Positions 1 through 23,132 of a stretch of DNA of 64,000 bases are shown here, piece by piece. Position 1 is the stretch's first letter. Each line of letters starts with the position of its first letter. The stretch is from NCBI GenBank assembly GCA_963750845.1, contig CAVVSP010000010.1, positions 32,932 through 96,931 on the forward strand, given 5' to 3'. Under the pieces are notes generated by a model. It was not told the origin of the DNA. It saw only the letters and a program-made list of their open reading frames with translations, and searched no databases. Both the position numbers and the translations under genes were made by a program. The DNA comes from an uncultured Acidobacteriaceae bacterium (GTDB lineage: Bacteria; Acidobacteriota; Terriglobia; Terriglobales; Acidobacteriaceae).

Positions 1-2
1 AA

Positions 3-1487
3 CGCGATGTGCTTACTAAGGAGCAAATCGCGCTGGCGCGTCCTGATGTGACGCACTTCAAATACGATCTGGCAGACGAATCCAATCGCGACTTGTCGCT
101 GGTGCCCACTCTCATGCGAGAGATGCTGGAGATGCTGGCATCGGGCGCGATCGCTCCGCTGCCGGTGAAGGAATTCGATAACCCGGGCGATGCGTTTCGT
201 TTCATGGCGCAGGCGCGGCATACGGGAAAAATCGCAGTGACGCGCCCAGGCGTCGTGCCTGATCCGATCGTGATCGACCCGGAGGCCACGTATTTGATCA
301 CGGGCGGCACTGGCGGTGTCGGTCTGCGTTTTGCGGAGTGGCTGGTAAGTCGCGGAGCCAGGCATCTTCAACTTCTGTCGCGAAGAGGCGGCGATGCAAC
401 CTCTGAAGCAGTCATCGCTCCGTTGCGAGCGAAAGGCGCGGACGTTCGCATTGCGCGAATCGATATTGCGGATGCGGCGGCGCTGAAGACCCTACTCGAA
501 GAAATTCCAAAGTCTGCGCCGCTCAAGGGCATATTGCATGCAGCCGGCGTGTTGGACGATCATAGCCTCCTGGGTCAGAGCTTTGCCTCCTTTGTTGAGG
601 TGGCCCGGCCAAAGTGGACTGGCGCGTGGAATCTGCATCTGCTGACGCGCGGTCTGAAGCTCGATTTTTTTGTGCTGTTCTCTTCCGCGACTGCGCTGAT
701 CGGCATGCCAGGTCAGGCCAATTACAGCGCGGCGAACAATATGCTCGGGGGACTCGCAGCGTATCGCCGTGGCCGTGGTCTGCCCGCACTCAGCATTGCG
801 TGGGGCCCCTGGGCGGGTGCCGGGATGGCAGCAGCTTTGCACCCGGCGGACTTCGGTTTCGGGTGGATCACTGCGGAGGAAGGAACGGCCGCCCTGGAAA
901 GATTGCTGACGACTGGCGAGGCCGAAGCGACGGTGCTGCCGGTGGCCTCATGGAATCGATTCGTAAGCCAGCGTTCTGCGGATGCGTCGGCCTTATTTTC
1001 TGGGTTGACGGATACATCGATACGCATAGCAAAGCTCGCCGAGAATCTTGTTTCGTCCCGGGAAAGCGAAGCGGAACGAAAGGCCAGCTTTGCCAAGCTG
1101 CTGCAGCAGGCTGGGCCTTCAGAACGGCGTGCGCTATTGACAGAACATCTGCGGCAACAGACGAGGCAGATTCTTTCGCTGACCACTGACAACGTGGTGG
1201 ACGAGGATGCGGCGCTGCATGATCTTGGCCTGGATTCGTTGATGGCCGTGGAACTACGAAATACGTTGCAGGTCTCGCTGGAGCGTCAGCTTTCCCCGAC
1301 TCTGGTGCTGGATTATCCGACACTGCGCGCGTTGCGGGAGAATCTCTTGACTGAAATGTTTGGTTCGCAAAAGGCACCAGACGCCGCCAGCGAATGGATG
1401 CACCAGATCGATGAATTGACTGACAGCGAAGCGGAAGCCTTGCTGCTGGAAGAACTGCAGAGGCCCGTCCATGCTGCAAAACGTTAA
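3..1487 (+). CDS. Type I PKS, C-terminal part (end of ER, then KR-ACP and C-terminal docking helix); 5' end lies outside the window
   Basis: The frame is open to the left edge. ER tail AFRFMAQARHTGKI; KR motifs ITGGTGGVG, HAAGVLDD (B-type) and YSAAN; ACP LGLDSL; acidic docking helix IDELTDSEAEALLLEEL. Confidence 0.95.
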   Translation, partial: RDVLTKEQIALARPDVTHFKYDLADESNRDLSLVPTLMREMLEMLASGAIAPLPVKEFDNPGDAFRFMAQARHTGKIAVTRPGVVPDPIVIDPEATYLITGGTGGVGLRFAEWLVSRGARHLQLLSRRGGDATSEAVIAPLRAKGADVRIARIDIADAAALKTLLEEIPKSAPLKGILHAAGVLDDHSLLGQSFASFVEVARPKWTGAWNLHLLTRGLKLDFFVLFSSATALIGMPGQANYSAANNMLGGLAAYRRGRGLPALSIAWGPWAGAGMAAALHPADFGFGWITAEEGTAALERLLTTGEAEATVLPVASWNRFVSQRSADASALFSGLTDTSIRIAKLAENLVSSRESEAERKASFAKLLQQAGPSERRALLTEHLRQQTRQILSLTTDNVVDEDAALHDLGLDSLMAVELRNTLQVSLERQLSPTLVLDYPTLRALRENLLTEMFGSQKAPDAASEWMHQIDELTDSEAEALLLEELQRPVHAAKR

Positions 1488-4400
1488 TCCGTTGCCTGCC
1501 GATATGCCCAACGCTGGTGAGCTGTCGCCGGTGAAACGGGCGCTGATCGAAATCCGGCATCTGCGTGAGGAGCTGGAAAAAAGCAAACGAGGCATGCATG
1601 AGCCAGTTGCCATTGTCGGCATGGCGATGCGGTTTCCTGGCGGCATCACGACGCCGGAGCGCTTCTGGGAGGCGCTGGCGGAAGGCGAAGATCTCATCGG
1701 AACAGTGCCAGCCGAACGCTGGGATGCCCGCGAGTATCTGAACACGGATCCCGATCATGCGGGAACCATGTACGACGGTCAAGGCGGCTTCCTGGCTGAT
1801 ATCGATGCATTCGATGCGGAGTTCTTTGGAATCAATCCCCGCGAAGCAGCAAGCATGGACCCGCAGCAAAGGATGCTACTGGAACTCACCTGGGAGGCTT
1901 TGGAGCGAGCGGCAATTGATCCAAAGGCGCTCTTCAATAGCGCTGCCGGTGTCTTTCTCGGTCTATCGAACTGCGACTACGCGCGGTACACAATGCGGGA
2001 TCCGCGGGAGATCGACGCTTATGCCAGTGTGGGCTGCACTTTGAGCATTGCGGCGGGACGTATTTCCTATTTTCTAGGTACCCACGGGCCAGCGATGGTT
2101 GTCGATACGGCATGTTCCTCATCGCTGGTAGCGCTCGATCTGGCCACGCAGAGTCTGCGCCGAGGCGAGATCGATCTTGCCATAGTCGGCGCCGCCAATC
2201 TCATCCTTACACCGGAGTACAGCGTCAGTTTCTCCCGCACACGGATGCTTTCTCCCCATGGTCGCTCAAAAACCTTCGATGCCTCGGCGGATGGTTATGT
2301 GCGGAGCGAAGGCTGCGGAGTCGTGATACTACGGCGGCTTGCCGACGCGAAACGCGACGGCGACCCTGTTCTGGCGAAGATCGTCGGCGTGGCTGTGAAC
2401 CAGGACGGACGGAGTGCAGGCATTACGGCCCCGAATGGCCCGGCGCAGGAAGCGGTAATCCGGGCGGCGCTTGACGATGCTCAGGTGGCTCCGACGGCGG
2501 TTAGTTTTGTTGAAACACACGGCACCGGAACGCCGCTGGGTGATCCGATGGAAGTGCAGGCATTGTCTGCCGTGTATGGAACTGGGCGCGACGGCGGAAC
2601 TCCGCTACACATCGGTTCGGTGAAGACGAACCTGGGACACGCCGAAGCGGCAGCCGGGATGGCCGGGCTGATGAAAGTGGTGCTCACCATGCAGCCAGGC
2701 CATGGAATCGCTCCGCATCTTCATTTCAAGGAGCCCAATCAGAAAATCGACTGGAAAAACCTGCCGATCAAGGTGCCGACGGCACTGACGCCATGGCCAC
2801 AAACGGACAGTGGAACTCGATACGCGGGACTGAGCTCATTTGGGTTCAGTGGAACCAACGCACACATAATTATTGCCTCTGCGGATGATGACGCTCCTGC
2901 CGCAGATGTGAAAGCTGGGCGCGACGATGCCGAGGCGGTCCTGGTGATCTCGGCATCGCATCCGGAGTCGCTGCGAAAACAAGCGGAGAGCTATACCGCG
3001 TTCCTTGAACAGACCACGGAGCGGTTTTCGGATATCTGTTTCACCGCTTTCACCGGCAGGGCCAGCCTGGAACATCGTCTGGCATTGCGAGCGCGGGATC
3101 CGAGGTCAGCGGCTTCCATGCTGGAACAGTGGCTTGCAGGAGAGAGTATCGCAGGGCTGGTATCGAAAGAATCGGCTCCCGACGTTGCAAAAGACAAGAC
3201 CATGCAGTTGCTCGTCCGGTATATCCAGGGCGAGTCGTTGAGCTGGGAAGATCTGCTCGCGGCAGGTGAACAGCGGCGCGTGGCGCTGCCTGTCTATCCG
3301 TTTCGCAAGATGCGCTATTGGTTTGGCCCGGATCCGAAGAAGAAGCGGCAGATGGATCGTGAGCGGATATGGCAAAGTGCGGTAGCTGCGGCTGAACTGC
3401 AAAGCCGTCAGGGACCCCTTGGATGGGATCCAGGATCGTATGCCGAGAGATGGTCGACCTTGCATCGACTTACGTTGGCGCATGCGCAAAATGTCCTGGC
3501 CGAAGCCGGAGCATTTCGACAACAGCAGCTTGTGAGTGCAGACGATGTGCTGTCACAGGGTGGTTTCCAGCCACTCTATCGCAAGCTGGTGCAGCGTTGG
3601 CTCAAAGGCCTGGCTTCGAGCGGAGCGTTGGTGGCCGAAGGAGATCGCTTCCGTGCACCGGCGGCTTTTGGTGCAGCATCGCTTGAAAGACACTGGAGCG
3701 AGACCGAACAACAGCTTTGGAACAATCCCGGGATGCTGGCGTATCTGCGGCAGTGCAGCGCCCTGCTCGGTGATGTGCTGACGGGAAGAAAGAGTTCGCT
3801 GGAGACACTGTTTCCTCAAGGATCGTTCTCCATCGCGGAGGGCCTCTACGAAACCGGTCCAGAAGCACGATTCCTGAATCCGATCGCCGCTGCCGCGGTG
3901 AATCAGGTCGCGCGAGGTCTGGGACAAAGACGCAACGCACGCGTATTGGAAATCGGTGGCGGCACCGGAGGAACGACTTCCGCGATTCTTCCAATGCTTC
4001 CTGCAGGGCAGGCCGAGTACTGGTTCACAGACGTCTCCGAGCTCTTTCTCAACCGAGCGCAACGAAGGTTCGGTGCATATCCTTTCGTTCACTATGCGTT
4101 ATTCGATCTCGATCGTCCGCTCGAAGAGCAGGGTATCGGCGCCGGGCAGTTTGATGTGGTCGTGGCGGCGAATGTCATCCACGCATCGCGCAATCTAAAC
4201 CTGGCGCTCGAGCGGGTGCGGCGATTGCTGGCACCGGGCGGAATCCTCGTGCTGCTGGAATGCACGACGCATCATAGCCATTTTGATATGAGTGTTGGGT
4301 TGATTGAAGGCTGGCAGCACTTCGAAGACGACATACGCCAGGAACATCCGTTGCTGCACGTCGAGCAGTGGAGGAATCTCCTCGAAGCAAACGGATTTTC

Positions 4401-5010
4401 ATCGATGATGGCTCTTCCCGAATTGGATTCACCCGCTTCCGCAGTTGGCCAACACATCCTGATTGCGCGAAGTCTAGAAGCAGGTCAACTCGACTCCGAT
4501 GCAACGTTCCAGAACTTTGTGGCGGATGTTGCGGCGTCGAGATCGAGCGAGCCGATGCAGCCGATCAGCATCGACGGGCGTGATGTCACCGACAGACTGC
4601 GCACGCTCTCTCCGAATGAGCGCGAACAAGCAGTCCTCGATCTTGTGCGGACAACAATCAAGCATGTCTTTAACCTGCCCCAGCGGGCCGAAGAACTGAC
4701 GCCTCGAGATCGGTTGAGCGACCTGGGAATGGATTCCTTGATCGCGCTCGAGTTGCGGGCGGAGCTGGCCAAGGTATTCGGACTGGAAGCCCAGATTTCG
4801 TCGACCATTGCGTTCGATACGGGCACGGTTGGGGAACTGGCCAAAGCTTTGCTGCGAGCAGCGGAAGCTCCCGGACGTGAGGAGATTCAGAGCAGCGAGG
4901 CGGAGGTCCAGAATCTCCCGTCAGTTGCGCAGGTGACGTTGGATGAGCTGAACGAGATGACGGACGAGGATGTGGAGCGGCTCCTGAGTGAGAGGTTGAG
5001 CAGGCGATGA
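1471..5010 (+). CDS. Type I PKS module KS-[no AT]-methyltransferase-ACP
   Basis: KS triad intact (DTACSSS, HGTGT, NLGHAE). The KS-AT linker runs directly into LPVYPF..RYW, with no GQG or GHSxG AT motifs. SAM motif VLEIGGGTGG plus NVIHA and GLIEGW (C-MT-like). ACP LGMDSL. Confidence 0.93.
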   Translation: MLQNVNPLPADMPNAGELSPVKRALIEIRHLREELEKSKRGMHEPVAIVGMAMRFPGGITTPERFWEALAEGEDLIGTVPAERWDAREYLNTDPDHAGTMYDGQGGFLADIDAFDAEFFGINPREAASMDPQQRMLLELTWEALERAAIDPKALFNSAAGVFLGLSNCDYARYTMRDPREIDAYASVGCTLSIAAGRISYFLGTHGPAMVVDTACSSSLVALDLATQSLRRGEIDLAIVGAANLILTPEYSVSFSRTRMLSPHGRSKTFDASADGYVRSEGCGVVILRRLADAKRDGDPVLAKIVGVAVNQDGRSAGITAPNGPAQEAVIRAALDDAQVAPTAVSFVETHGTGTPLGDPMEVQALSAVYGTGRDGGTPLHIGSVKTNLGHAEAAAGMAGLMKVVLTMQPGHGIAPHLHFKEPNQKIDWKNLPIKVPTALTPWPQTDSGTRYAGLSSFGFSGTNAHIIIASADDDAPAADVKAGRDDAEAVLVISASHPESLRKQAESYTAFLEQTTERFSDICFTAFTGRASLEHRLALRARDPRSAASMLEQWLAGESIAGLVSKESAPDVAKDKTMQLLVRYIQGESLSWEDLLAAGEQRRVALPVYPFRKMRYWFGPDPKKKRQMDRERIWQSAVAAAELQSRQGPLGWDPGSYAERWSTLHRLTLAHAQNVLAEAGAFRQQQLVSADDVLSQGGFQPLYRKLVQRWLKGLASSGALVAEGDRFRAPAAFGAASLERHWSETEQQLWNNPGMLAYLRQCSALLGDVLTGRKSSLETLFPQGSFSIAEGLYETGPEARFLNPIAAAAVNQVARGLGQRRNARVLEIGGGTGGTTSAILPMLPAGQAEYWFTDVSELFLNRAQRRFGAYPFVHYALFDLDRPLEEQGIGAGQFDVVVAANVIHASRNLNLALERVRRLLAPGGILVLLECTTHHSHFDMSVGLIEGWQHFEDDIRQEHPLLHVEQWRNLLEANGFSSMMALPELDSPASAVGQHILIARSLEAGQLDSDATFQNFVADVAASRSSEPMQPISIDGRDVTDRLRTLSPNEREQAVLDLVRTTIKHVFNLPQRAEELTPRDRLSDLGMDSLIALELRAELAKVFGLEAQISSTIAFDTGTVGELAKALLRAAEAPGREEIQSSEAEVQNLPSVAQVTLDELNEMTDEDVERLLSERLSRR

Positions 5011-8000
5011 CACAGACAGGCAAATCTGAGCAGTCTGGAGCGCAACTATCTCCATTGAAGCAGGCTTTTCTCGCTCTGCAAGCGGCGCAGTCCCGCGTGG
5101 ATGAACTTGAACGGGAACGCTCGGAGCCCGTCGCCATCATAGGCATCGGATGCCGTGTTCCAGGTGGCGGTGAGGGATATGAAGGCTTCTGGAAGCTGCT
5201 GCAAGAAAAAGGAATCGCCGTCAGCGATGGGATGGAGCGCCGGCTGACTTCCGTCGGCCGTAAGGTGCCGTTGCCCGAGGCCGCGCGATGGGCCGGCCTT
5301 CTGGACGAAATAGACGGCTTCGATCCGCAGCACTTCGGTATCTCGCCACGTGAGGCGGTCGGGATCGATCCGCAACAGAGGCTGCTTCTGGAGACATGCT
5401 GGGAAGCGCTTGAAGATGCTGGCGTAGACCCATTCTCGTTGTATCAGTCTCCTACCGGAGTTTACCTCGGCATCGCGACGCACGATTATGCGCATTTACA
5501 AATGCCGGGAATCGGCTTGGGGACGGTCAGTCCTCACTTCGCATCGGGAATTGCATCGAGTGTTGCAGCAGGCCGAATCTCTTATGTGCTCGGATTGAAT
5601 GGGCCATGTGTTTCCCTCGACACAGCCTGCTCTTCTTCGCTGGTGGGTTTGCATCTGGCGTGCGACGCCCTCCGCCGCGATGATTGCTCGATAGCGCTGG
5701 CAGCGGGGGTGAACGTGATCCTCTCGCCGGAGTATCCTATCGCTTTCGCTGAAACCGGCATGCTCTCTCCGCGGGGTCTCTGCCACACCTTCGATGAGGC
5801 CGCGGACGGTTTCGTGCGCGGAGAGGGTTGCGGTGTAGTGGTTCTCAAACGGCTGCGGGATGCCCAGGCATCCGGCGATCGCATTCTTGCAGTAGTGCTG
5901 GGTTCGGCGGTGAATCACGACGGCGCGGCGAGCGGACTGACCGTGCCTAACGGGCAGGCTCAGCAGGAATTGTTGCGGCAGGCTCATGCGAATGCGCGGG
6001 TGGAAGCGCGACAGGTTGGTTACGTCGAAGCGCACGGCACTGGGACTTCATTAGGCGATCCCATCGAGATTGAGGCATTAGGATCGGTCTTCGGGGCAGG
6101 ACGTAAGCGGGAGCACCCGCTCCTGCTGGGATCGGTGAAGGCGAACCTCGGGCATCTGGAGGCCGCAGCAGGCATCGTCGGAGTCATCAAAGTCGTATTG
6201 AGCCTGCAACACGGAGAGATTCCTCCTCAGCCACGATTGAATCGTCTGAACCCGCATGTTCGCTGGGGTGAGCTTCCGCTCGAGGTCGTGACAGATCAGC
6301 AATCGTGGCCCACGATCGAGGGTCGCCGGATTGCAGGTGTGAGTTCCTTCGGGTTCAGTGGAACGAACGCGCACGTTGTCCTGGAAGGCTTCGCAGAAGC
6401 CGCTCTGCCGGCCCCGGAGGTGCGGCGCGCAGAAGTGCTTGTCCTTACCGCCAGGACCGCGACCGCGCTGCGTCAACTTGCAGAGCGGTATGTGCAGTTT
6501 CTGGAGCGCACCGAGGAAGATTGGGGAGATATCTGTCACACGGCTGCGTCAGGCCGCGCGGTCTTTGGCGAGCGCCTCGCGGTTGTTGCAGCCGATAAAG
6601 AGGCGGCCGCGGATTCTCTGAGGGACTGGATCGAGAGGGGTTTGGAATCGGATGCGGTCTTCGGAGGCAGAGTTCGTGCAGGCGATGCAGTGACGCAGCG
6701 GAAGCTGGAACTGCCTGCGGCGGGTATCACCACCGATAACGAATGGTTGTCTCTGGCAAAGGAAGTCGCGGTTGCGTTTGTCCACGGCATCCCAGTCGAT
6801 TGGAATGCATGGAGGAGGGGTCTTAGTCGGCGCAAGGTGGCCCTGCCGACTTATCCCTTTCAACGCGAGCGGTATTGGGTGGAAGCTCCACGACGCAGAA
6901 ACGAGATTGCGGGCGAAGCGACAGGCCGGATTTTGCTTGGAAGTCGTCTACCGGTGGCCGGAGTGGGCGCGCAGTTTCAAACCGAGCTGTCGGTTGAGGG
7001 CGCGAACAGTTGGATCTCCGAGCATGTGATGGGCGGGCGCACAGTCTTTCCCCTGACGGGACACATTGAACTGATGCTCGAAGCTGGGGCGGAAGCTTTG
7101 GGCGCGGGAGCGATGCTGGAGGATATCGCGCTGCACCGGCCGCTGGTGGTCGATGGCGCGAGCACGATACAGGTGGTTGTAGGGAACGAGGCCCAGGGGC
7201 GCACCCATGTGCAGTCATACGTAGCGGATGCGGATGACGGCTGGCTGCCGATCTCTGAGGGATGGCTTTGCTCGGAGGACAAGAGCAGAAAAGACCATGT
7301 CGAGGATCGACTGGACCTCGAAGCGATTCGCACTCGTTTAGGCGAGCCGCGAGATGCTGCGGAATTCTATGCGAGTGCCGCCACCGACGGAGCCAACTTC
7401 GGCCCACGATTCCAGGGGATTGAACGGTTGTGGACGAGTACGCATGAGGCCTTGGCCGAGGTTGGCGTGCGGGCTGCGGAAGAGAACTATGTATTCGCAC
7501 CTTGGCGTCTGGATGCTTGCCTGCAGTTGATCGCAGCGGTGCGTCCAGATGCGGATATGTATCTGCCTTCGAACGTCGGAGAGATTCGTCTCTACGGAAA
7601 GCCTGGCGAGTATTGCTGGAGTCATCTCCGCAGCCGCCAGACCGACGCCGATACCCTCGCCGTGGATGTGACAGTGGCACATCCCAATGGCAGCGTGCTG
7701 GCAGTCGTTCGCGACATGTTATTCCGCAGGTTTACTCCAGGAAAGGTGGATACCACTTCCTGGTTCTACCGTCTGGCGTGGAAGGTGGCGACGGCTGAGA
7801 TCACGGGGCAGCCTGCGATCCAGCGCGCGATATTGATCGGGCGCTCTTGCAGAATGCCGGAAATAGCAGCATCTTTGCGCGAAAAAGGTGTTTCTGTGCA
7901 GATCTTCGCAGACGCCACGCAACTGCAGTCTTCGGAGGCCGATGTGGTGCTCTGTTTCTTATCGAAAGATGCGAAAGATACTCCGCTCGAAATTGGCCAT

Positions 8001-10589: not shown

Positions 10590-10606
10590 GAGCACATAGG
10601 GAGGAA

Positions 10607-13600: not shown

Positions 13601-15226
13601 GGATCGTTCTTTTCGGGAAGCACCTCAAGTGATCTAATTCGAGACCGCGAATTCCTCAAGGAATACCTGCGCGGAATCGATACGCCACAGGTAGTTCTAC
13701 TGTTGGCGAGTCGTCCTGAGACGGAGAATCTTCCAGAGGCGGTGCTGCAGAGCGCGACTACCGTTCTGGCGGCAGTGCAGGAAGCCCAGGACAGCAACGC
13801 GGAAGAGCCGGAGCTCTGGCTGATCACGCGCGGAGCTTTTGCCTGCTCGCCGGCCGATCGTATAGCGCTCACCGCCAGCGTGGCGGGCGCCATCGCGAAG
13901 GTATCGCGTGTCGAGAACCCAGGCGTGCATATTTACCAGGCGGATTTGTCCCTCGAACCGACAATCGACGATCTCTCACAACTCGCCAATTTGTTGTGCA
14001 AGGGAACAGTGGAACATACGGTCGCGCTTCGCGAGGGGACGGTTCGTGTTCCGAGGTTGGTGAATGATGACGGACAACAGACAGGACGACTCAAGATCGA
14101 AGCCGGTGCCGCTTACCTGGTAACGGGAGCGTTCAAAGGTTTGGGCCTGCGCACGGCACAATGGCTGGCGGAACGCGGGGCGAGAGAACTCTATCTCGTC
14201 GGACGCAGCGAGCCCTCTGCCGTAACGCGGGAAGAGCTGGATCGTCTCGAACGAGCGGGCGTACGAGTGCATGCAGTTATCGCTGATATCTCAAAAAAGG
14301 AAGAATTCGCTCGTCTTTCAACCCAAATCGTCGAGAATGGTTCCGAGCTGCGCGGTATCCTGCATGCTGCCGGCACACTCGATGACGGTATTCTGATGCA
14401 GCAGACGCCGGAGCGCTTTGCGACGGTCTTTGCTCCCAAGGTTTCAGGTGGATGGTTCCTGCACGAGTTCTCGCTTCAGTATCGGCTGGATTTCTTCGTG
14501 CTATTCAGCTCGGCTGCCGCACTACTTGGCTCGGCGGGACAATCCAACTACGCAGCAGCGAATGCGTTTCTCGATGCACTGGCCGAGTTGCGGCATCAGC
14601 AGGGCTTGCCCGCAACTGCTGTCTCCTGGGGCGCTTGGTCGGAGATTGGAATGGCCACGCGCGGACTTGCCGCTCGCCGCAGCGTCGGCAACGGCATTGG
14701 CAGCATCTCGCCGGAAGAGGGCATGGCGTTGCAGGAGCGAGCCATCCTGAGCGGACTCCCCACGGTTGGGGCGTTGGCCTTCGATTGGAAAAAGCTCTTC
14801 TCGCTGCGAACCGTGCACCATGACTGGCCGCTTCTGCAGAAACTGGCGGCGAATGCCGGTGCGTCGCCCAGTGTTGAGCGTGCTGTCTCTCTGGCCTCGG
14901 TCGTGGAGCAAGCACCCGCCGATGGCCGACTGCATGCGATCAAGGAGTATTTGAGCGCGCGGATCGCGTCAGTTCTGATGCTGCCATCGAGCTACGTTCT
15001 GCACGAAGATCAGCCGTTTGCCGAACTTGGACTTGACTCACTGATGGCGCTTGAGTTGAAAAATGAACTGCAATCATCGGCAGGGGCAGCTCTTCCGCCA
15101 ACATTTCTATTTGAATACCCAAATCTAGGTCTTGCGGCGACTTTTCTGGATGCATTGATGGCGGGAGCCCGCAGGACCGGATCGGCGGAAGTCCACGCTA
15201 CGGGCTATGAGGAGATTGTGCTGTGA
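10607..15226 (+). CDS. Type I PKS module KS-AT(malonyl)-KR-ACP
   Basis: GGAGG RBS. KS DTACSAS, HGTGT, VGHLE; AT FTGQGSQ, GHSLG, HAFH (malonyl-type); KR TGAFKGLG (slightly atypical Rossmann loop), TLDD, YAAAN; ACP LGLDSL. Ends GYEEIVL. Confidence 0.95.
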   Translation: MALRSDEASNAFLERIQSLSPKRLALLAAELERRLAARENSVPEPIAVIGMACRMPGGATTPEEFWRVLESGKDTAAKVPIERWDADAFYDPQLDTPGKSITTNASMLRGIDLFDAAFFGISPREATGIDPQQRMLLEVTWEALENAGERGEAIEESATGIYVGVSSSDFQHLVLQADERTLNAYAGSGIANSMLSGRLSHYLGVTGPNLTVDTACSASAVAIHLACQSLRTNECNRALAGGVNLFLLAEGLILLSQAHMLAPDGRCKAFSRQADGFGRAEGCGMLVLKRLSDARADGDRILGLIRGTAINHDGKSSGLTAPNGPAQEAVIQTALSQARLKPGQVDYVEAHGTGTVLGDAIELGALGHVFGKEHDAANPLLLGSVKTNVGHLEAAAGVTGVMKVLLAFQHESLPPHLHLSADNQNEALLGLPFEIPITSKRWSRSQRPRVAGVNSFGFSGTNCHLVLEEPPLVEQAESGPAFAVELITVSAKTPTALTALCGRYARFLRDNPAVSLGDFGYTANACRTTFQHRVAVIARSVEDAAAQFEQISSGKVEQSSSYRFAAGYKAPPLAFLFTGQGSQYSGMGRTFYERNAAFRSAMDRCDRALTGRKHRLSAVVFGDPAVPRESIDDTTWTQPALFAFEYSLAMMWQSWGVRPSMVLGHSLGEYVAACIAGILTLEEALTLAAERGRLMGELPRSGSMLAVRAGEDAIMAVVGALPATVSIAAMNGPEAIVLSGKTDDVTKLHDLLMAKGIRSQPLTVSHAFHSPLMEPMLDEFEGQAAKLTYRPPEVDFASNVTGQMLTPGEPIDAGYWRKHVRGTVKFAQGMKALLEQKPGVVIEIGPNPILLGMAKAAHPELTLPCVPTLRRGKDEWQCAFEALQQIYLAGAPIEWSGVYRDRLKQKLVLPTYPFQRERYWAAVTPKAARTAVASESAESTVERIEPRLYRVEWTTADPSRVKTEKTRSVVLVGDALEKIEVGKALRDAGLVVQDLPVAGSFFSGSTSSDLIRDREFLKEYLRGIDTPQVVLLLASRPETENLPEAVLQSATTVLAAVQEAQDSNAEEPELWLITRGAFACSPADRIALTASVAGAIAKVSRVENPGVHIYQADLSLEPTIDDLSQLANLLCKGTVEHTVALREGTVRVPRLVNDDGQQTGRLKIEAGAAYLVTGAFKGLGLRTAQWLAERGARELYLVGRSEPSAVTREELDRLERAGVRVHAVIADISKKEEFARLSTQIVENGSELRGILHAAGTLDDGILMQQTPERFATVFAPKVSGGWFLHEFSLQYRLDFFVLFSSAAALLGSAGQSNYAAANAFLDALAELRHQQGLPATAVSWGAWSEIGMATRGLAARRSVGNGIGSISPEEGMALQERAILSGLPTVGALAFDWKKLFSLRTVHHDWPLLQKLAANAGASPSVERAVSLASVVEQAPADGRLHAIKEYLSARIASVLMLPSSYVLHEDQPFAELGLDSLMALELKNELQSSAGAALPPTFLFEYPNLGLAATFLDALMAGARRTGSAEVHATGYEEIVL

Positions 15227-18200
15227 AGCCGTTGATTCAATTTCTATCTGATCTTCGCGCCAAGGACGTCTTACTCAGCGTCGACGGCGATAAGTTGACC
15301 TGCAATGCGCCAATGCATGCAATTACTCCGGAAATCCGACAGGAATTGAGCGATCGCAAAGAAGAGATACTTAGCTTTTTACGAAGTACACAAGGTTGGA
15401 AGGCCGCGGAGACAGGGCCAAGCTCCTCGCGTGATTTGCCGCTCTCGCGCTCCCAACAACGGATCTGGTTTCTGGACCAGCTCGATCCTGGAAATCCGGC
15501 TTATAACATTGTGATCCCTCTCTGGCTCACCGGCAGTCTGGACCGTGATGCCATGGAGCGTGCTCTTCGCGCCGTGATCGGGCGTCACGAAGCTCTTCGG
15601 ACTGGTTTTTCGCAGCGCGGCGGCCGGCCTTTTGCATGGATCACCGGCCAGAAGTCGTGGCAGATGGAGGTCACCGACCTGCGGCATCTGACGGAACCGG
15701 AAGCCGAAACAGAGGCGGCACAGCTTGCCTGGCATGCGGGTCGCTGGTCTTTCGACCTCGAAAAGCCTCCGCTCTTCCGCGCTACCCTCTATCAAGTCAC
15801 CTCTGAGCGATATCTGCTTTGTCTGGTGGTTCAGCACATCGTTGCCGATGGCTGGTCTCTCGGCATCCTTTCTCGCGAGATGTCCGAACTTTATTGCGCA
15901 TTTGCGACTGGCGCATCTTCGCCTTTGCCCGATCCGAGCTTTCAGTATCGTGACTACGTGCGCTGGGAGCAGGAAGAAGGGCAGAGGCTGGCGGAGCAGC
16001 AGCTACCGTACTGGCTGAAGAAGTTACATGGAGACCTGCCGAGTCTGGAGATTCCGCCTGACCGGACTCGTCCGATCCTGCAGAGTCTCGACGGTGGGCG
16101 ACATATTGTCGATATCGACGGCGATCTTGCGGACCAGCTTCGCGTACTCAGCCGGCAGATGGGCGCAACACTTTTTACCGTGTTGCTAGCCGCATTCAAG
16201 GTCCTGATGTACCGCTATACCGGCACCAGAGACGTCATTGTCGGAAGCAACACGGCGAATCGTCCGAGACAAGAGTTCTCCACACAGATCGGCTTTTTCG
16301 TAAATAACATAATTTTGCGCAGCGATCTGAGCGGCAACCCCACCTTCGCCGAGTTGGTTGCGCGCGTGAAGGAGACGACCGGATCTGCTTACGCGAACCA
16401 GAATGTACCCTTCGACTTGTTGGTTGAGAAGCTGCATCCTGAGCGCGCCACGGGCCATCGCAGCACGTTGGCTCAGGTGATGTTTACGCTGGAAAATCTG
16501 CCGCTACCGGATTTGGATCTTCCCGGGCTAAAATCCCGGCCCGACCATTTCGATTTTGGAGTGGCCGGAGCTGATCTTGCGGTATTGCTCTGGCCCGTTG
16601 GCAATGGGTATCGATGTGAGTTCGAGTACAGCAAGGATTTGTTTGACGAAACCACAGTCCGACAGTTGCAGGAACATTATCTGCGATTGCTGAAAGAGGT
16701 GGTGGCAAATCCGGGCGCCCCAATCGAAACGTATCCGCTGCTGAGCGATAACGAACGTGCGCAGCTTGTAACCGAGTGGAACCAAACCGCTCATCCGGGG
16801 CCGGGCTATCCGACTGTAGCAGATTGGTTCCGCGCGCAGGTGGCGCTGCGGCCAAATGCGATTGCGGTGGAGATGGGCGACCGGCAACTTAGCTACGCGA
16901 AACTGGACGCTTTGTCTGACCGTATGGCGAGTGCATTGCAGCAACGCGGCGTCGGACGAGAGATAGTGGTGGGTCTCTATGTGGCGCGCAGTGTAGAGAT
17001 GATGATCTGCCTGCTGGGGATTCTGAAGGCGGGAGGAGCATATCTGCCTTTGGATCCGGCGTTCCCGGCGCAGCGAATTGAATACCTGATCCGAGACTCG
17101 GCCGTGGGTCTGATCGTAACCGAGAAGAGCCTCGAGACTTCGTTGCCCGAGAGCGGCGCAGAGGTGCTCCTGATGGAGCAAGCGCTGGCGTCCGAAACTG
17201 AAAAAGCGGCAGTAGAGCCCGCACGGGCAGAGGATTTGGCCTATCTCATCTATACGTCAGGTTCGACGGGGCAGCCTAAGGGAACTGAGATCACGCACGG
17301 ATCGCTAGTGAACTTGTTGGATTCGATGCTGCGGGAACCGGGACTGAGCCACGGGGACACTCTGGTCGCGGTCACGACATTGTCATTCGACATCGCGGGT
17401 CTGGAGTTGTTTGGTCCACTGGTAAGTGGCGCGAGGCTGGTTCTGGCGTCGCGAGAGCAAACGCTGGATCCGGTCGATCTAGCGGAGTTACTGGAACGCA
17501 GCGGCGCCACGGTGCTTCAGGCTACTCCGTCGACATGGCGAATGCTGATGGAATCCGGTTGGCTCGGGAAGCGCGACCTGCGGATGTGGTGCGGGGGCGA
17601 GGCGCTATCGGCGGAGCTGGCGGATAATCTGCTAACACGTGGGCGGGAGCTTTGGAACCTGTATGGTCCGACAGAAACCACGATCTGGTCGGCGGCGCAC
17701 CGGGTGAGCAGCGGCGAAAACCCTGTTCTTATCGGCCGTCCTATTGCGAATACACGGATGTATATCCTCGACAACCATGGCGATCCAGTGCCGACGGGCG
17801 TGAACGGAGAACTCTACATCGCCGGACATGGCGTGGCCCGAGGTTACCGGAACCGCGCTGAGCTGACGGCAGAACGATTTCTGCCAGAGCGATTTATGGA
17901 CGACGAGCGCATGTATCGGACGGGAGATATGGCGCGGTACCGTCGAGATGGGCAGATTCAACTTCTGGGGCGGACCGATCAGCAGGTCAAACTGCGCGGC
18001 CATCGCATCGAGCTTGGAGAAATTGAGGCGGCACTGGAACGCCATGCAGCCGTACAGCAGGCAGTCATTTCAGTGCGGGGACAGGATGCGGATCGGCGTC
18101 TGGTGGCGTATGTTCGGCTGGACACCGCGAGTGTGCAGAGCGACGATTTGCGGGCATGGCTACAGGAGCGGCTTCCGGAATATATGGTGCCGGGTGTGTA

Positions 18201-18564
18201 TGTTGTGATGGAAGAATTTCCTCTCACGCCGAATGGGAAGGTGGACCGTAATCGTTTGCCCTCGCCGGAAGCGCGTCCACAAGAGCACCATGCACCGGCT
18301 CTGGCGCCACGCAACCGAACCGAACAGCGCGTGGCGGCCATCTGGTCCGAACTGCTCGAGCACGAAGCAGTCGGCGTGCGCGAGAACTTCTTCGATCTGG
18401 GCGGCCATTCTCTGCTCTTGGTTCGCGTGCACGCCCGCCTGCGCGATGCATTCGCTGCCGATATCTCCGTCACCGATCTTTTCCGCTTCACCACCGTCGA
18501 ATCGCTTGCTGCCCATCTGAATCGCCAGGAAGCGCCGGTAATTGTGGAGGGAGTTCCTTCCTGA
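15223..18564 (+). CDS. NRPS module: beta-hairpin (TubC_N-like) docking domain, C, A (probably Gly), PCP
   Basis: N-terminus FLSDLRAKDVLLSVDGDKLTCNAP; C domain LSRSQQRIWFL and QHIVADG; A domain YTSGSTGQPKG, NLYGPTETTIW, YRTGD, NGKVDR. Specificity code read by eye DILQWGLIWK versus canonical Gly DILQLGLIWK. PCP FFDLGGHSL. Confidence 0.95.
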   Translation: MKPLIQFLSDLRAKDVLLSVDGDKLTCNAPMHAITPEIRQELSDRKEEILSFLRSTQGWKAAETGPSSSRDLPLSRSQQRIWFLDQLDPGNPAYNIVIPLWLTGSLDRDAMERALRAVIGRHEALRTGFSQRGGRPFAWITGQKSWQMEVTDLRHLTEPEAETEAAQLAWHAGRWSFDLEKPPLFRATLYQVTSERYLLCLVVQHIVADGWSLGILSREMSELYCAFATGASSPLPDPSFQYRDYVRWEQEEGQRLAEQQLPYWLKKLHGDLPSLEIPPDRTRPILQSLDGGRHIVDIDGDLADQLRVLSRQMGATLFTVLLAAFKVLMYRYTGTRDVIVGSNTANRPRQEFSTQIGFFVNNIILRSDLSGNPTFAELVARVKETTGSAYANQNVPFDLLVEKLHPERATGHRSTLAQVMFTLENLPLPDLDLPGLKSRPDHFDFGVAGADLAVLLWPVGNGYRCEFEYSKDLFDETTVRQLQEHYLRLLKEVVANPGAPIETYPLLSDNERAQLVTEWNQTAHPGPGYPTVADWFRAQVALRPNAIAVEMGDRQLSYAKLDALSDRMASALQQRGVGREIVVGLYVARSVEMMICLLGILKAGGAYLPLDPAFPAQRIEYLIRDSAVGLIVTEKSLETSLPESGAEVLLMEQALASETEKAAVEPARAEDLAYLIYTSGSTGQPKGTEITHGSLVNLLDSMLREPGLSHGDTLVAVTTLSFDIAGLELFGPLVSGARLVLASREQTLDPVDLAELLERSGATVLQATPSTWRMLMESGWLGKRDLRMWCGGEALSAELADNLLTRGRELWNLYGPTETTIWSAAHRVSSGENPVLIGRPIANTRMYILDNHGDPVPTGVNGELYIAGHGVARGYRNRAELTAERFLPERFMDDERMYRTGDMARYRRDGQIQLLGRTDQQVKLRGHRIELGEIEAALERHAAVQQAVISVRGQDADRRLVAYVRLDTASVQSDDLRAWLQERLPEYMVPGVYVVMEEFPLTPNGKVDRNRLPSPEARPQEHHAPALAPRNRTEQRVAAIWSELLEHEAVGVRENFFDLGGHSLLLVRVHARLRDAFAADISVTDLFRFTTVESLAAHLNRQEAPVIVEGVPS

Positions 18565-21500
18565 TGACCATGCCAGGCTCCAACGCATCCAGGAATTCGT
18601 CCTCCTCTGCCAGGCCCGCGCCGTGGAACGACGGCATCGCAATCATCGGAATGAGTGCTCGTTTTCCGGGTGCGCGAAATGTCCGTGAGTTCTGGAAAAA
18701 ACTGGAAGCCGGCGAAAGCTTTGTCTCTGATTTGAGTGAGGACGAACTGCGGGCTGCTGGAGTAGACCCAGCCACGTTGCGCCGCAGCGAATATGTTCGT
18801 CGCGGAAGCATACTGGAAGACGCCGAGTACTTTGACGCAAAGTTTTTTGGCTTCAACCGCCGTGAAGCCGAAATCACCGATCCACAGCACAGGGTATTTC
18901 TGGAGACGGCGTGGCAGGCACTCGAGGACGCGGGCTACACCGGAGATGGTGCCCGCATCGGTGTGTATGCCGGCGTAAGCGTCAATTCCTATTTCTTTCA
19001 GTTGATGTCCCATCCGGATCTCGTCGAGAGTGTGGGCGGATATCAGTTGATGCTCGGCAACGACAAGGACTTTCTGGCGAGCCGTGTCGCCTACAAGCTG
19101 AACCTTCAGGGGCCTGCGGTCGTGGTGCAAACGGCATGCTCGACCTCACTCTCAGCAGTACACCTGGCCTGTCTCAGCATCTTTGCGAACGAGTGCGATA
19201 TGGCACTCGCCGGCGGTGTTTGCATCGGGTTTCCGCAAGGTACCGGCTATCCATATATGCCGGGCATGATCCTGTCTCCTGACGGATACTGCAGGCCGTT
19301 CGACAAAGACGCAAAGGGAACAGTGCCGGGCCGCGGCGCAGCGGTAGTCGTTCTGAAGCGTCTATCGCAAGCGCTGCAAGATGAAGATTCGATCTATGCA
19401 GTGATCCGTGGTTCTGCATGGAACAACGATGGTGCCGGAAAGATAGGCTATACGGCTCCTGGGGTTGCGGGGCAGGCCGCGGTCATTCGCGAAGCGCAGC
19501 GAGTCGCTGGCATAAGTGCGAACCGGATCGGCTATGTGGAAGCACATGGGACGGCGACGGAACTGGGTGACCCCATTGAGGTCACAGCGTTATCCGAGGT
19601 GTTTGCTGGCGGGAAGCCGGCTTCCTGCGTGCTTGGTGCACTGAAGGCCAACCTGGGCCATGCTGATGTCGCTGCCGGCGTGGCGGGATTGGTGAAGACG
19701 ACTTTGGCAATTCAGGCCGGAGTGATTCCTCCCACCCCGAATTTCCAGGAGGCTGCTCCGGCGCTTGGCCTCGACACCGGGCCCTTTGTGGTCAGTGCAT
19801 CCAGAAGAAATTGGCCGGACGGCGAAGAGCGATGGGCCGGAGTGAGTTCGTTCGGCATTGGAGGCACGAACATTCATGTTGTTCTGAGCAATGCTCCCGT
19901 GCGGCCCGCGCGTCCGAATACGGATCGAGCGCGGCTATTTCCGCTCTCGGCACGCACGGAAGGGGCACTGACGAATGTCCGCGAACAGTTGGCGAAGCAT
20001 CTCGAGCAAAGTCCAGAGATAGACCTTGCCGCGGTGGCGGCGACTCTGCAAATCGGGCGACGAGCCTTTGAGTCCCGCTCTGCCACGGTTGCGCAGAGCG
20101 CCGCAGAGTTGGTCACCAAACTCCGTCAGCCAATCGCCACCTCACCGGCGAGCGGCTTCGTCCGTTCAGATGTCGTCTTCCTCTTTCCAGGACAGGGTGC
20201 GCAGTTTGCCGGCATGGCGGCGGGTCTGTACCGCACCGATGCGTCGTTCCGAAGGGTCGTGGATCTCGGCGCGGAGATAGTTCGCGAGGAATTCGGACTC
20301 GATCTTCTGAAGATGATCGTCGACTCGGAATCGACCGGCGAATATGCCGAGATCATCAAGGAGACGCGCGTTACCCAGCCGCTTCTCTTTCTCGTTGAAT
20401 ATGCGCTGGCAACGCGCTGGCGCACGCTTGGCGTAGAACCGGGCGCCTTACTCGGGCACAGTCTCGGCGAACTCACTGCCGCGGCAGTCGCCGGCCTCTT
20501 TTCATTTGAAGATGGCTTGCGCCTGGCTGCCGAGCGTGGGCGACTGATGGGGCAGACCCCACCGGGAGTGATGCTTGCCGTGACCCTCGCGGCAGAGAGT
20601 CTAGCGCCCTATTTAGGACCGGAGTTGTGGCTTGCGGCCGAGAATGGTCCTAAACTCTCGGTCGTGTCCGGACTACCTGCCGCCGTTCAGATGCTCGAAG
20701 AGAAGCTTGCGAAGGATCGCATCTCCTTCGTTCGCCTGGCTTCCAAGAATGCCTTTCACAGCCCATTGATGGCGGATGCGGCGAAAGCCTTTCGCGAGAA
20801 AGTGGCAGCGGTCCCTCGGAAAGAACCTGCAATTCCGTGGCTCTCAAATGTCAGCGGCACCTGGGTCAATCCAACGGAAGCGCAGAATCCTCAGTACTGG
20901 GCGAATCAGATTCTGTCGCGTGTGCGATTTGCGAAGTGCCTTGCTTCTCTCAACGACCGTGCACGCTTTTTGCTCGAAGTCGGGCCAGGAGAGGTGTTGA
21001 TCGGAATGGCCCGCCACCAGACTGTCAAGAGTATAGGCGCGCCTTCGCTCGGGGCGGAGAATCGCAAGAAGAGCGACGACGTAATCTTTCTCGAAGCGGC
21101 TGCGCGATTGTGGCAGGCGGGAATCAATCTGGTCTGGCCAGAACTGCATCCAGGCGAGAAAGCGCAACGCGTGCCGCTGCCCACCTATCCTTTCGAACGC
21201 GAAAAATATTGGATTGGACCCGCGGGAAAATCTATAGAGACGAAACCAATAGAGAACGCGCAGCCACAACGTCAGTTCAATGCGATCACGACGGCAACGT
21301 TGAAGAAACGGCCGGAGATTTCCTCCTGGTTCTACATGCCGCAATGGCAGAGTATGCCGCCGTCGCCTGTTGATCCACTTCACACAACCGCAAAGGCGGT
21401 CGAGTCATGGCTCATCCTGCTGGATTCATCGGGGCTGGGGCAGTTGCTCACGGATCGTCTGGAACAGACAGGAGCCACGGTTGCATCGGTATCGCTCGCC

Positions 21501-23132
21501 CACGAATTTGCGCAAGACAAGAGGGCCTTCTCCCTCAATCCGGAGAAGCAAAGTGACTACGAGCGTTTATGGGCAGAGCTCGGTGCGTCTGGGATTCATC
21601 CTGCGGGCGTGATCTGCCTCTGGACGATAGGCGACATCGCTGCTTCTGCGTTCGATAGCGTCGCCCGGTTGCTACAGAGCGCTCGGGCGACCCGCCAGCG
21701 ACTACTGCAGATTGAAGTTGTCATGGATCGTTTGGAGCAGGTTTTTGACGAAGTCACACAGAATGTGGAGAGCTCCGAAGTATGTGGTCTGATGCGTGTC
21801 GTCCCGCTCGAGTTTCCGGGAACACAATGCCGCACGATCGACGTTGACCTGGCTGCTGGCAATACCAACAAAATCGTCGAGCAGATTATTTCTGAGGTGC
21901 GCTCATCCGGCAGTGCAAGGACTATCGCCATTCGCGGAAATACGCGCTGGCGGAAAGAGTGGTCATCGGTTCCACTGCAGAAAGCGGCGACAGGTGCGTT
22001 CAAGCGGGGTGGAGTCTACCTCATCACCGGAGGGCTCGGTGGCATCGGTTATGTCATTGCACGGCATCTGCTGGCCAAGTACGCCGCCCGCGTTGTCATG
22101 ACGGGCAGAACGCCACTTCCTCCACGGGAACATTGGCGCGGCTTGCTGGAGGAGAACGACCCCGATGAAGAGATATCCAGCCGGATTCGGCGGATGCAGG
22201 AACTAAAAGAGCTCGAGCAGTTCGGAGGAGAGATCCAATATGTCACTGCCGATGTGGCGGATCGCGACGCAATGTCCAGCGTCCTGGCCCAGATGCTTCA
22301 GCGCTATGACAGAATCGACGGAGTAGTACACGCCGCAGGCCTGGCTGGAGGCAGGATGATCGCCGGCATTGATCTGGCGGAAGCTACCCAGATACGTCGT
22401 CCTAAAGTGCAAGGCAGCTTGGTTCTTGCGGATCTGCTGAAGGAAACCAATCTCGACTTCCTCTTGTTCTGCTCCTCCGTCAGCTCCGTGTTCCCCGGGC
22501 CAGGACAAGCGGCATATGCCGCCGCAAACGAGTTTCAAAATCATTTTGCATGGCATTGCCGAAAAGCCTACAGGCTGCCGGCAGTTGCCATCGATTTCGA
22601 CGCATGGCGGCAGGTCGGTATCGCTGCCACCATGGTCCTGCCGGAAGGTTTCGAAGATATCAAGCAAGCGCGAATTCGCACGGCGATGAGCCCCGAAGAG
22701 GGCATCGACGTCATCGAACGCGTTCTTTCAGGATGGCCAGGACCGCAGATCCTCACCTCGACCGTCGAATTGGAGAGTTTTAGCAGCAACCTGCCAGAGA
22801 CATTAGCGGCGTCATCGCTGGAGACATCCGTCTCACCCGAATGCAGTCCGGAGGTCGACGCTATTGTCGAGATATGGTCCGATCTCTTGGCTGACAAGAA
22901 CATTGGGCCGACCGACAATTTTTTTGAACTGGGGGGCCATTCGCTCCTGGGTACGATGATCCTCTCCCGGGTCCGCGAGCGTTTTGGAGTCGTGCTCACC
23001 CTGAGAACACTGTTCGAAGCGCCGACACCCCAGAGTTTCGCCGAGCAGATTCTTTTTGCGCGTGATCGGCAGACGCTGGCATTGACGTCTACTGAGTTGG
23101 AAGCCGAAGAACGAGAGGCCTTCGAGATTTAG
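18564..23132 (+). CDS. Hybrid-type PKS module KS-AT-KR-carrier protein, no thioesterase
   Basis: Post-NRPS KS signature NDKDFLASRVAYKLNL...VQTACSTS; AT FPGQGAQ, GHSLG, NAFH; KR GGLGGIG and YAAAN, no LDD; PCP-like carrier FFELGGHSL. Ends EEREAFEI. TGATG overlap with the NRPS gene. Confidence 0.94.
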   Translation: MTMPGSNASRNSSSSARPAPWNDGIAIIGMSARFPGARNVREFWKKLEAGESFVSDLSEDELRAAGVDPATLRRSEYVRRGSILEDAEYFDAKFFGFNRREAEITDPQHRVFLETAWQALEDAGYTGDGARIGVYAGVSVNSYFFQLMSHPDLVESVGGYQLMLGNDKDFLASRVAYKLNLQGPAVVVQTACSTSLSAVHLACLSIFANECDMALAGGVCIGFPQGTGYPYMPGMILSPDGYCRPFDKDAKGTVPGRGAAVVVLKRLSQALQDEDSIYAVIRGSAWNNDGAGKIGYTAPGVAGQAAVIREAQRVAGISANRIGYVEAHGTATELGDPIEVTALSEVFAGGKPASCVLGALKANLGHADVAAGVAGLVKTTLAIQAGVIPPTPNFQEAAPALGLDTGPFVVSASRRNWPDGEERWAGVSSFGIGGTNIHVVLSNAPVRPARPNTDRARLFPLSARTEGALTNVREQLAKHLEQSPEIDLAAVAATLQIGRRAFESRSATVAQSAAELVTKLRQPIATSPASGFVRSDVVFLFPGQGAQFAGMAAGLYRTDASFRRVVDLGAEIVREEFGLDLLKMIVDSESTGEYAEIIKETRVTQPLLFLVEYALATRWRTLGVEPGALLGHSLGELTAAAVAGLFSFEDGLRLAAERGRLMGQTPPGVMLAVTLAAESLAPYLGPELWLAAENGPKLSVVSGLPAAVQMLEEKLAKDRISFVRLASKNAFHSPLMADAAKAFREKVAAVPRKEPAIPWLSNVSGTWVNPTEAQNPQYWANQILSRVRFAKCLASLNDRARFLLEVGPGEVLIGMARHQTVKSIGAPSLGAENRKKSDDVIFLEAAARLWQAGINLVWPELHPGEKAQRVPLPTYPFEREKYWIGPAGKSIETKPIENAQPQRQFNAITTATLKKRPEISSWFYMPQWQSMPPSPVDPLHTTAKAVESWLILLDSSGLGQLLTDRLEQTGATVASVSLAHEFAQDKRAFSLNPEKQSDYERLWAELGASGIHPAGVICLWTIGDIAASAFDSVARLLQSARATRQRLLQIEVVMDRLEQVFDEVTQNVESSEVCGLMRVVPLEFPGTQCRTIDVDLAAGNTNKIVEQIISEVRSSGSARTIAIRGNTRWRKEWSSVPLQKAATGAFKRGGVYLITGGLGGIGYVIARHLLAKYAARVVMTGRTPLPPREHWRGLLEENDPDEEISSRIRRMQELKELEQFGGEIQYVTADVADRDAMSSVLAQMLQRYDRIDGVVHAAGLAGGRMIAGIDLAEATQIRRPKVQGSLVLADLLKETNLDFLLFCSSVSSVFPGPGQAAYAAANEFQNHFAWHCRKAYRLPAVAIDFDAWRQVGIAATMVLPEGFEDIKQARIRTAMSPEEGIDVIERVLSGWPGPQILTSTVELESFSSNLPETLAASSLETSVSPECSPEVDAIVEIWSDLLADKNIGPTDNFFELGGHSLLGTMILSRVRERFGVVLTLRTLFEAPTPQSFAEQILFARDRQTLALTSTELEAEEREAFEI

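Follow-up and report, generated by a model that had tools for sequence, protein, structure and literature searches.

A stretch of 64,000 nucleotides from an uncultured Acidobacteriaceae bacterium (assembly GCA_963750845.1, labelled G000; contig CAVVSP010000010.1, labelled C10), referred to below as the window (G000:C10:32932-96931), opens with six genes of a hybrid assembly line, part polyketide synthase (PKS), part nonribosomal peptide synthetase (NRPS). A preliminary description of the window had listed at positions 1-23132 six co-oriented genes of one module each, with four of the five junctions overlapping. The + strand open reading frames (ORFs) and the Pfam domain calls (E-values of 1e-9 to 1e-105 for the window genes) agree with it on the hybrid character, the domains and the layout; the overlaps are 17, 4, 4 and 1 nt, and the sole non-overlapping junction, between gene 5 and gene 6 (10589/10607), is a 17-nt gap. 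The domains concerned are ketosynthase (KS), acyltransferase (AT), dehydratase (DH), enoylreductase (ER), ketoreductase (KR), C-methyltransferase (cMT) and acyl carrier protein (ACP) on the PKS side, and condensation (C), adenylation (A), peptidyl carrier protein (PCP) and thioesterase (TE) on the NRPS side. Genes are numbered by module:

Window 3-1487, + strand, 5' end open: 3' end of PKS gene 3 (module 3), with the tail of the ER, KR (~285-815), ACP (~1149-1334) and C-terminal docking helices.
1471-5010, + strand: PKS gene 4 (module 4), with KS (~1600-2727), KS/AT-type linker (~2734-3144), cMT core (~3910-4398) and ACP (~4642-4851); no AT and no KR.
5007-10589, + strand: PKS gene 5 (module 5), with KS (~5124-6233), linker, DH (~6933-7745), ER of the medium-chain dehydrogenase/reductase (MDR) type (~8451-9305), KR (~9333-9857) and ACP (~10224-10424); no AT.
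10607-15226, + strand: PKS gene 6 (module 6), with KS (~10736-11863), AT (~12329-13258), KR (~14108-14644, LDD/B type) and ACP (~14948-15142).
15223-18564, + strand: NRPS gene 7 (module 7), with TubC_N beta-hairpin dock (~15238-15384), C (~15430-16770), A (~16828-18240) and PCP (~18325-18519).
18564-23132, + strand: PKS gene 8 (module 8), with KS (~18633-19745), AT (~20175-21032), KR (~22012-22610) and a PCP-like carrier (~22857-23048, FFELGGHSL); no TE.

Every KS in the window retains its Cys/His/His residues and every carrier its Ser, and the signature motifs of the DH, KR, ER and cMT domains are all intact. In gene 4, the KS (Pfam E-value 1.6e-94) carries DTACSSS, HGTGT and NLGH, the cMT (Methyltransf_12, 2.3e-21) carries the S-adenosylmethionine motif LEIGGGTG, and the carrier is matched by PP-binding at 2.2e-9. 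Gene 5 has HxxxGxxxxP in its DH, AAGGVGLAA in its ER, and IDD with the Tyr in its KR, while the KR of gene 3 has an LDD motif and the catalytic Tyr. Considering all five KRs of the line, the catalytic Tyr is present throughout, and (L/I)DD motifs are found in KR3, KR5 and KR6 and are missing from KR2 and KR8. Gene 7 is matched by TubC_N (PF18563, 1.7e-17), Condensation (1e-104) and AMP-binding (6.6e-89). On the 3' side of gene 8 lie a convergent BBP2 porin gene (23292-24731, - strand), a two-component pair and then kdpCBA. Since the unrelated porin and kdp genes come next, the + strand operon ends after gene 8.

The start of the cluster had been placed outside the window, and examination of 33 kb upstream on the same contig locates it ~18-19 kb away. 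The + strand operon starts at C10:21676 and holds three further modules there (M1, M2 and M3). The same intergenic region also gives rise, in the divergent direction, to an operon of four genes, for a type II thioesterase, an Sfp-type phosphopantetheinyl transferase (PPTase), an NRPS with a TE domain and a GT2 glycosyltransferase. The NRPS first surfaced as a paralogue of the window NRPS (42% identity) and is termed M9 here. The six-module line of the preliminary description is therefore one of nine modules, with three more upstream and a divergent module for termination:

Upstream of the window, + strand: M1, KS-AT-ACP.
Upstream of the window, + strand: M2, KS-KR-ACP without AT.
G000:C10:28629-34418 (L002:12629-18418), + strand: PKS gene 3 whole, 1929 aa, KS-DH-ER-KR-ACP without AT.
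L023:5989-10416, - strand: M9 NRPS, 1475 aa, TubC_N dock-C-A-PCP-TE.

The domains of M9 are recognised by TubC_N (1.1e-16), Condensation (3e-100), AMP-binding (6.5e-97), PP-binding and Thioesterase (4.8e-16). We consider it probable, at about 70%, that the line is a nine-module hybrid of ~41 kb (G000:C10 ~14988-56063) in a soil host of the Acidobacteriaceae, of which the window contains the tail of module 3 and modules 4 to 8. Based on gene order and docking elements, the modules would act in the order M1 KS-AT-ACP, M2 KS-KR-ACP, M3 KS-DH-ER-KR-ACP, M4 KS-cMT-ACP, M5 KS-DH-ER-KR-ACP, M6 KS-AT-KR-ACP, M7 dock-C-A(Gly)-PCP, M8 KS-AT-KR-PCP and M9 dock-C-A(Gly)-PCP-TE. The release domain appears to be wanting because the terminating module sits upstream on the opposite strand. 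The linkage of M9 to the PKS genes is kept in two arrangements: divergent and upstream in G000 and in the metagenome-assembled genome (MAG) G001, and convergent after gene 8 in Acidobacterium sp. S8. The beta-hairpin dock of M9, the lack of a release domain in gene 8 and the survival of the linkage through rearrangement together support M9 as part of the line. Scans for promoters and terminators in the divergent intergenic region and at the 3' end gave nothing above shuffled sequences. Adjoining the GT2 gene is the gene for a protein of 1130 aa (L023:1195-4587, + strand, equal to G000:C10:10194-13586) that combines Ig-like repeats with a 'choice-of-anchor V' domain and is conserved at 91% identity in MAG G001.

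The docking elements fit this order at both PKS-NRPS junctions that lead into a glycine module. PF18563 domains stand at the N-termini of both NRPS modules, M7 and M9, and the two carriers that precede them end in short acidic/hydrophobic tails, ..GYEEIVL in gene 6 and ..EEREAFEI in gene 8. A beta-hairpin dock needs a carrier upstream of it that ends in a short tail, a rule known for pairs of a short linear motif (SLiM) and a beta-hairpin (review PMC9113145); the tails of M6 and M8 and the docks of M7 and M9 thus fit the SLiM-beta-hairpin rule, and the acidic M8 tail would be expected to dock on the beta-hairpin domain of M9. The TubB-TubC, Kj12B-C and Bamb_5915 pairs share with it the PF18563 dock and the short charged/hydrophobic carrier tails; unlike them, two tails and two docks occur within one line here, so that cross-talk may be possible. 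A complex prediction for the M9 beta-hairpin domain (P0121:62-135) and the gene 8 carrier with its tail (P0001:1425-1522) scored 0.07 and carries no weight either way. At the PKS-PKS junctions, the helical docking strings quoted in the preliminary description are present in the sequence. Their putative resemblance to class 2 docking domains (two C-terminal helices and an N-terminal coiled coil, as in CurG/H, CurK/L and Bamb_5925/24) is a pattern seen by eye. The KS alignments reach the N-terminal region of CurL (from query residues 5 and 14), and the isolated docking helices and termini gave no significant match in the PDB.

Four of the seven PKS modules (M2-M5) retain the KS/AT linker and lack the AT. 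No AT remnant was detected in M2-M5 at E<=0.001 with PF00698, and in G000, G001 and S8 this profile finds only AT1, AT6 and AT8 and a FabD of 314-321 aa; G000 is 81% complete on 39 large contigs and S8 (G127) is 99% complete. Two KSs were compared with solved structures, KS3 from an AT-less and KS6 from an AT-bearing module. Both have CurL as their top match (535 and 565 bits), followed by DEBS at ~450 and by single trans-AT KSs at 315-390. An assignment to trans-AT-type KSs was rejected: the Brevibacillus trans-AT bimodule 7zma topped the list for KS3 and KS6 only by summing two KSs, which score 315 and 336 bits singly, below CurL. The possibility that AT1 is a FabD-like trans-AT was likewise discarded, its nearest solved relatives being the in-module methylmalonyl ATs of DEBS and MAS. 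The line therefore differs from cis-AT lines in that M2-M5 have no AT of their own, and agrees with them in that KS3 and KS6 are closest to cis-AT KSs and the reductive domains lie within the modules, the ERs being integrated MDR-type domains and not trans-acting. A free AT other than FabD, KSs of the trans-AT clade and a trans-acting ER, the marks of trans-AT systems, were not found. The most economical reading of these sequences is a line of cis-AT lineage that lost four ATs.

The ACPs of M2-M5 would then be malonylated in trans. In FK228 biosynthesis, the FabD of fatty acid synthase supplies malonyl units to AT-less PKS modules (PMC12994790). By analogy, housekeeping FabD may serve the line studied here; with three ATs retained in the cluster, one of these could instead act in trans. 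The dep cluster for FK228 (romidepsin) of Chromobacterium violaceum is likewise a hybrid NRPS-PKS with AT-less modules and has no AT gene (PMC12994790); its module order and product are unrelated, and the present cluster differs from it in keeping ATs in three modules. The closest solved KS-linker for AT-less and AT-bearing modules alike is that of CurL (curacin, cyanobacteria, PDB 4mz0). Curacin-type PKSs also have one module per protein, short helical termini and integrated cMT and MDR-type ER domains, whereas each Cur module has its own AT, and the host phylum, module order and NRPS content differ.

The extender and amino acid specificities were read from the remaining ATs and the two A domains. 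AT6 (GHSLG..HAFH) is of the malonyl type, AT8 (GHSLG..NAFH) is malonyl-like and AT1 (GHSMG..VASH) is methylmalonyl-like. KS1 has no N-terminal dock and retains Cys/His/His (NAACAAS); it may take an external acyl group into condensation, or do no more than prime the line. With the A-domain codes anchored by hand on the A4, A5 and A10 motifs and compared with the reference glycine code DILQLG(L/M)IWK, M7 reads DILQWGLIWK (9/10, L299W) and M9 reads DILQLGLIWK (10/10). This supports the glycine NRPS module that had been proposed in the window and adds a second predicted one. The best solved relatives of both are glycine modules, namely LgrA module 2 and DhbF (5u89) for M7, together with AB3403 among those of the two modules. 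The Trp in place of Leu at position 299 of the gene 7 pocket is also present in G001 and in the orthologue of G059, and M9 and the other relatives keep Leu.

The TE of M9 has Cys at the nucleophile position. Its nucleophile elbow reads GGHCVGG in G000, GGLCVGG in G001 and GGYCVGG in Acidobacterium sp. S8, and among solved structures the TE is matched best by that of AB3403 (ggwcfgg), with the Cys aligned and the Asp and His conserved. In an exhaustive search, Cys occupies this position in 128 of the 150 cluster representatives nearest to the TE (50% identity clusters); the last A-domain code could be extracted for 19, and is of the glycine type in 13. Many of the nearest TE relatives are C-A-PCP-TE proteins of ~1400 aa. 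M9 is, by its code and motifs, a member of a widespread and functionally unexplained unit for termination that joins glycine to a Cys-TE, and no one-off. AB3403 (ABBFA_003403) of Acinetobacter baumannii (PDB 4zxh/4zxi) has the C-A-PCP-TE architecture in common and is similar over the full length (657 bits), and reportedly activates glycine. In contrast to M9, AB3403 shows no beta-hairpin dock over the aligned region, and its locus, a small non-PKS lipopeptide one, has an uncharacterised product. A catalytic Cys is uncommon in TEs and has been tied to beta-lactone formation in ObiF (PMC6668435). The M9 TE resembles the type I TE of ObiF (obafluorin) in this Cys (PMC6668435), yet the Asp of ObiF lies on another strand (RifR-like), whereas that of M9 takes the AB3403/EntF-like position. 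A beta-lactone is impossible for the M9 TE, because the terminal residue is glycine.

The whole set of modules is conserved in two other genomes. G001, the uncultured Acidobacteriaceae MFD04580.bin.1.17, has the same layout as G000 at 85-99% identity. The cultured Acidobacterium sp. S8, of another genus, has all modules at 58-70% amino acid identity, with the NRPS-TE gene and the PPTase convergent and just after gene 8. In the S8 cluster (C3:175001-235000), module 2 has no KR (803 aa against 1260 aa) and the glycine NRPS M7 is present as two ORFs, split between C and A. An ABC-2 exporter pair takes the place of GT2 in S8, and GT2 is not supported as a conserved tailoring gene. Of 200 other family genomes that were sampled, 12 carry a gene 8-type PKS (E<=1e-280), and S8 alone among the sampled family genomes has a gene 8 match of at least 69% identity; the homologue tallies across genomes include the unpublished G026, on which no individual statement depends. 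In the two genomes of the same genus, which are 97% and 99% complete, these cluster queries had no such match. Metagenomic contigs carry copies at 80-83% identity, one of which, an 82-kb ENA contig, has genes 5-8 and then different neighbours. Outside G000, G001 and S8 the cluster is rare. Its flanks differ between G000 and S8, and the patchy distribution is consistent with transfer or repeated loss.

Several clusters of other Acidobacteriaceae (G062, G115, G029 and G059) share with the studied line only a 3' trio, consisting of beta-hairpin dock-C-A(Gly)-PCP, KS-AT-KR-PCP and C-A-PCP(-TE). The PKS tails to which this trio is joined differ, and they too combine modules with and without AT. These clusters look like a family in which the head group is conserved. 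The mixture of AT-bearing and AT-less modules was seen in the related clusters of G115, G062 and G029, and in G115 a stretch mapped as an AT-less module contains a partial match to the AT profile (positions 2-114, 51 bits).

Several observations weigh against the nine-module line. M9 is encoded on the other strand, and only synteny and docking motifs mark it as the putative acceptor of the M8 chain. Between M7 and M8 no docking element could be recognised, and M1 has no obvious loading device. Tailoring is uncertain, because the GT2 gene beside M9 is not conserved in S8. The absence of KR2 and the split of M7 in S8 may mean that the products of the strains would differ, or that the S8 copy is impaired. 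Lastly, a one-base insertion at C10 ~21898 (L002 ~5898, ..gag c gtc gat..) splits KS1 into ORFs at L002:5676-6005 and 5956-8847.

This insertion and the four modules that lost their AT would argue for a decaying, non-functional cluster, in which the KS1 frameshift is real and the AT-less modules are relics. KS1 is, however, intact in G001 and S8. A second break lies near the cluster in the same assembly: kdpA (30319-31824, - strand) is shortened by a one-base insertion at ~30300-30340 (..GSAF / a / GGLSANT..), and its conserved C-terminal ~85 residues run on in another frame up to kdpB. G001, for its part, has breaks in genes 5, 6 and 8. The intact KS1 elsewhere, the kdpA insertion, the G001 breaks and the 81% completeness on 39 contigs point to indels of long-read assembly and not to decay; the KS1 frameshift is probably an assembly error and the kdpA break probably an assembly indel. 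The AT-less modules, moreover, have lost none of their catalytic motifs and are retained across genera, and we regard decay as quite unlikely. Judged from its sequence, the cluster is complete, conserved and under selection. Somewhat easier to entertain, if still unlikely, is a line that ends at gene 8, with release by the type II TE or spontaneously, and a divergent C-A-PCP-TE that serves another small pathway, for instance with GT2. Type II TEs can hydrolyse carrier-bound acyl groups, and M9 lies on the other strand beside GT2 in both G000 and G001. Against this, M9 still adjoins the PKS genes in S8, where its position and neighbour have changed; its dock needs a tailed upstream carrier, and gene 8 has such a tail and no release domain; and nothing in the locus would serve a lone C-A-PCP-TE as its own acyl donor.

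The AT-less modules could also belong to a genuine trans-AT segment whose dedicated free AT is encoded elsewhere and was not assembled, as an assembly of only ~81% completeness would allow, and AT-less modules with a retained flanking linker are a hallmark of such systems. The nearly complete S8 genome, though, has only FabD besides its three cluster ATs, the KSs have their nearest relative in CurL, whose KS is of the cis-AT kind, the ERs are integrated, and the helical N- and C-terminal docking regions of the subunits are typical of cis-AT lines, which makes this the most improbable of the alternatives. Whether the cluster might be a close homologue of an already characterised pathway was likewise considered. 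Glycine-ketide units occur in known myxobacterial and cyanobacterial products, and comparisons with MIBiG, antiSMASH and BiG-SCAPE are outside this analysis. Above 45% identity, on the other hand, gene 8 has only unnamed acidobacterial or metagenomic proteins as homologues, and the named ones, from other phyla, reach at most 42% and differ in length. Full-text literature on acidobacterial PKS-NRPS products, on AT-less acidobacterial PKSs and on cis-AT modules without AT gave no matching pathway, and in a 2025 survey only 7 acidobacterial biosynthetic gene clusters (BGCs), in four families, co-cluster with MIBiG references. A characterised homologue is therefore very unlikely.

For the nine-module line, the predicted product would be built from a starter and six ketide extensions, followed by glycine, one reduced ketide and a C-terminal glycine. 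In the polyketide part, M2 and M6 would leave hydroxyls and M4 a C-methyl group beside a retained ketone, and two units would be fully reduced, giving a C-methylated, keto- and hydroxy-bearing, medium-chain acyl part in amide linkage; glycine and one reduced ketide would form a 4-amino-3-hydroxybutyrate unit. The preliminary description had proposed a methyl-branched, partly reduced acyl chain amidated to glycine and extended once more. The acyl chain and the glycine are supported as predictions; the single extension would not be the end, as a second glycine and release by a Cys-type TE would follow. Release by the Cys-TE would yield a free acid, or a lactone through the hydroxyl of M6 (a 12-membered ring) or M8 (a 7-membered ring). 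Conserved lactonisation via the M2 hydroxyl is unlikely, because module 2 of S8 has no KR. A propionate starter would make the linear acid ~C20H36N2O8 (432.25 Da), and an acetate starter would bring it to 418.23 Da; a lactone would weigh 18 Da less, and the S8 version, for want of KR2, 2 Da less. Taken further, we tentatively suggest an acidobacterial lipo-depsipeptide family in which four ATs were shed, FabD or a neighbour's AT acts in trans, and the glycine and Cys-TE close a 7- or 12-membered ring; this combination is possible but doubtful.

The preliminary description did not recognise the domain order and noted a poorly characterised host group. No characterised counterpart was found in the literature or among protein homologues (MIBiG was not queried), and the host is indeed of the Acidobacteriaceae, a family with few characterised metabolites. 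The modular hybrid PKS-NRPS is a known kind of system, and its orphan status is provisional; orphan PKS-NRPS clusters are common, and each unusual trait here has precedent. For annotation, the cluster shows that a 'missing' release domain may sit upstream of a PKS operon on the other strand. The pairing of a glycine termination module with a Cys-nucleophile TE recurs widely in databases and its function is unexplained. The loss of ATs from cis-AT-type modules, with no dedicated trans-AT in the genome, bears on the origins of trans-AT systems and on extender supply. If the proposed lipo-depsipeptide family were real, it would represent an evolutionary intermediate between cis- and trans-AT logic and would bring a new scaffold out of a phylum in which hardly any polyketides are known. 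Soils are rich in Acidobacteriaceae, but hardly any of their specialised metabolites are known; as the cluster also occurs in a strain in culture, Acidobacterium sp. S8, a direct search for its product is feasible.

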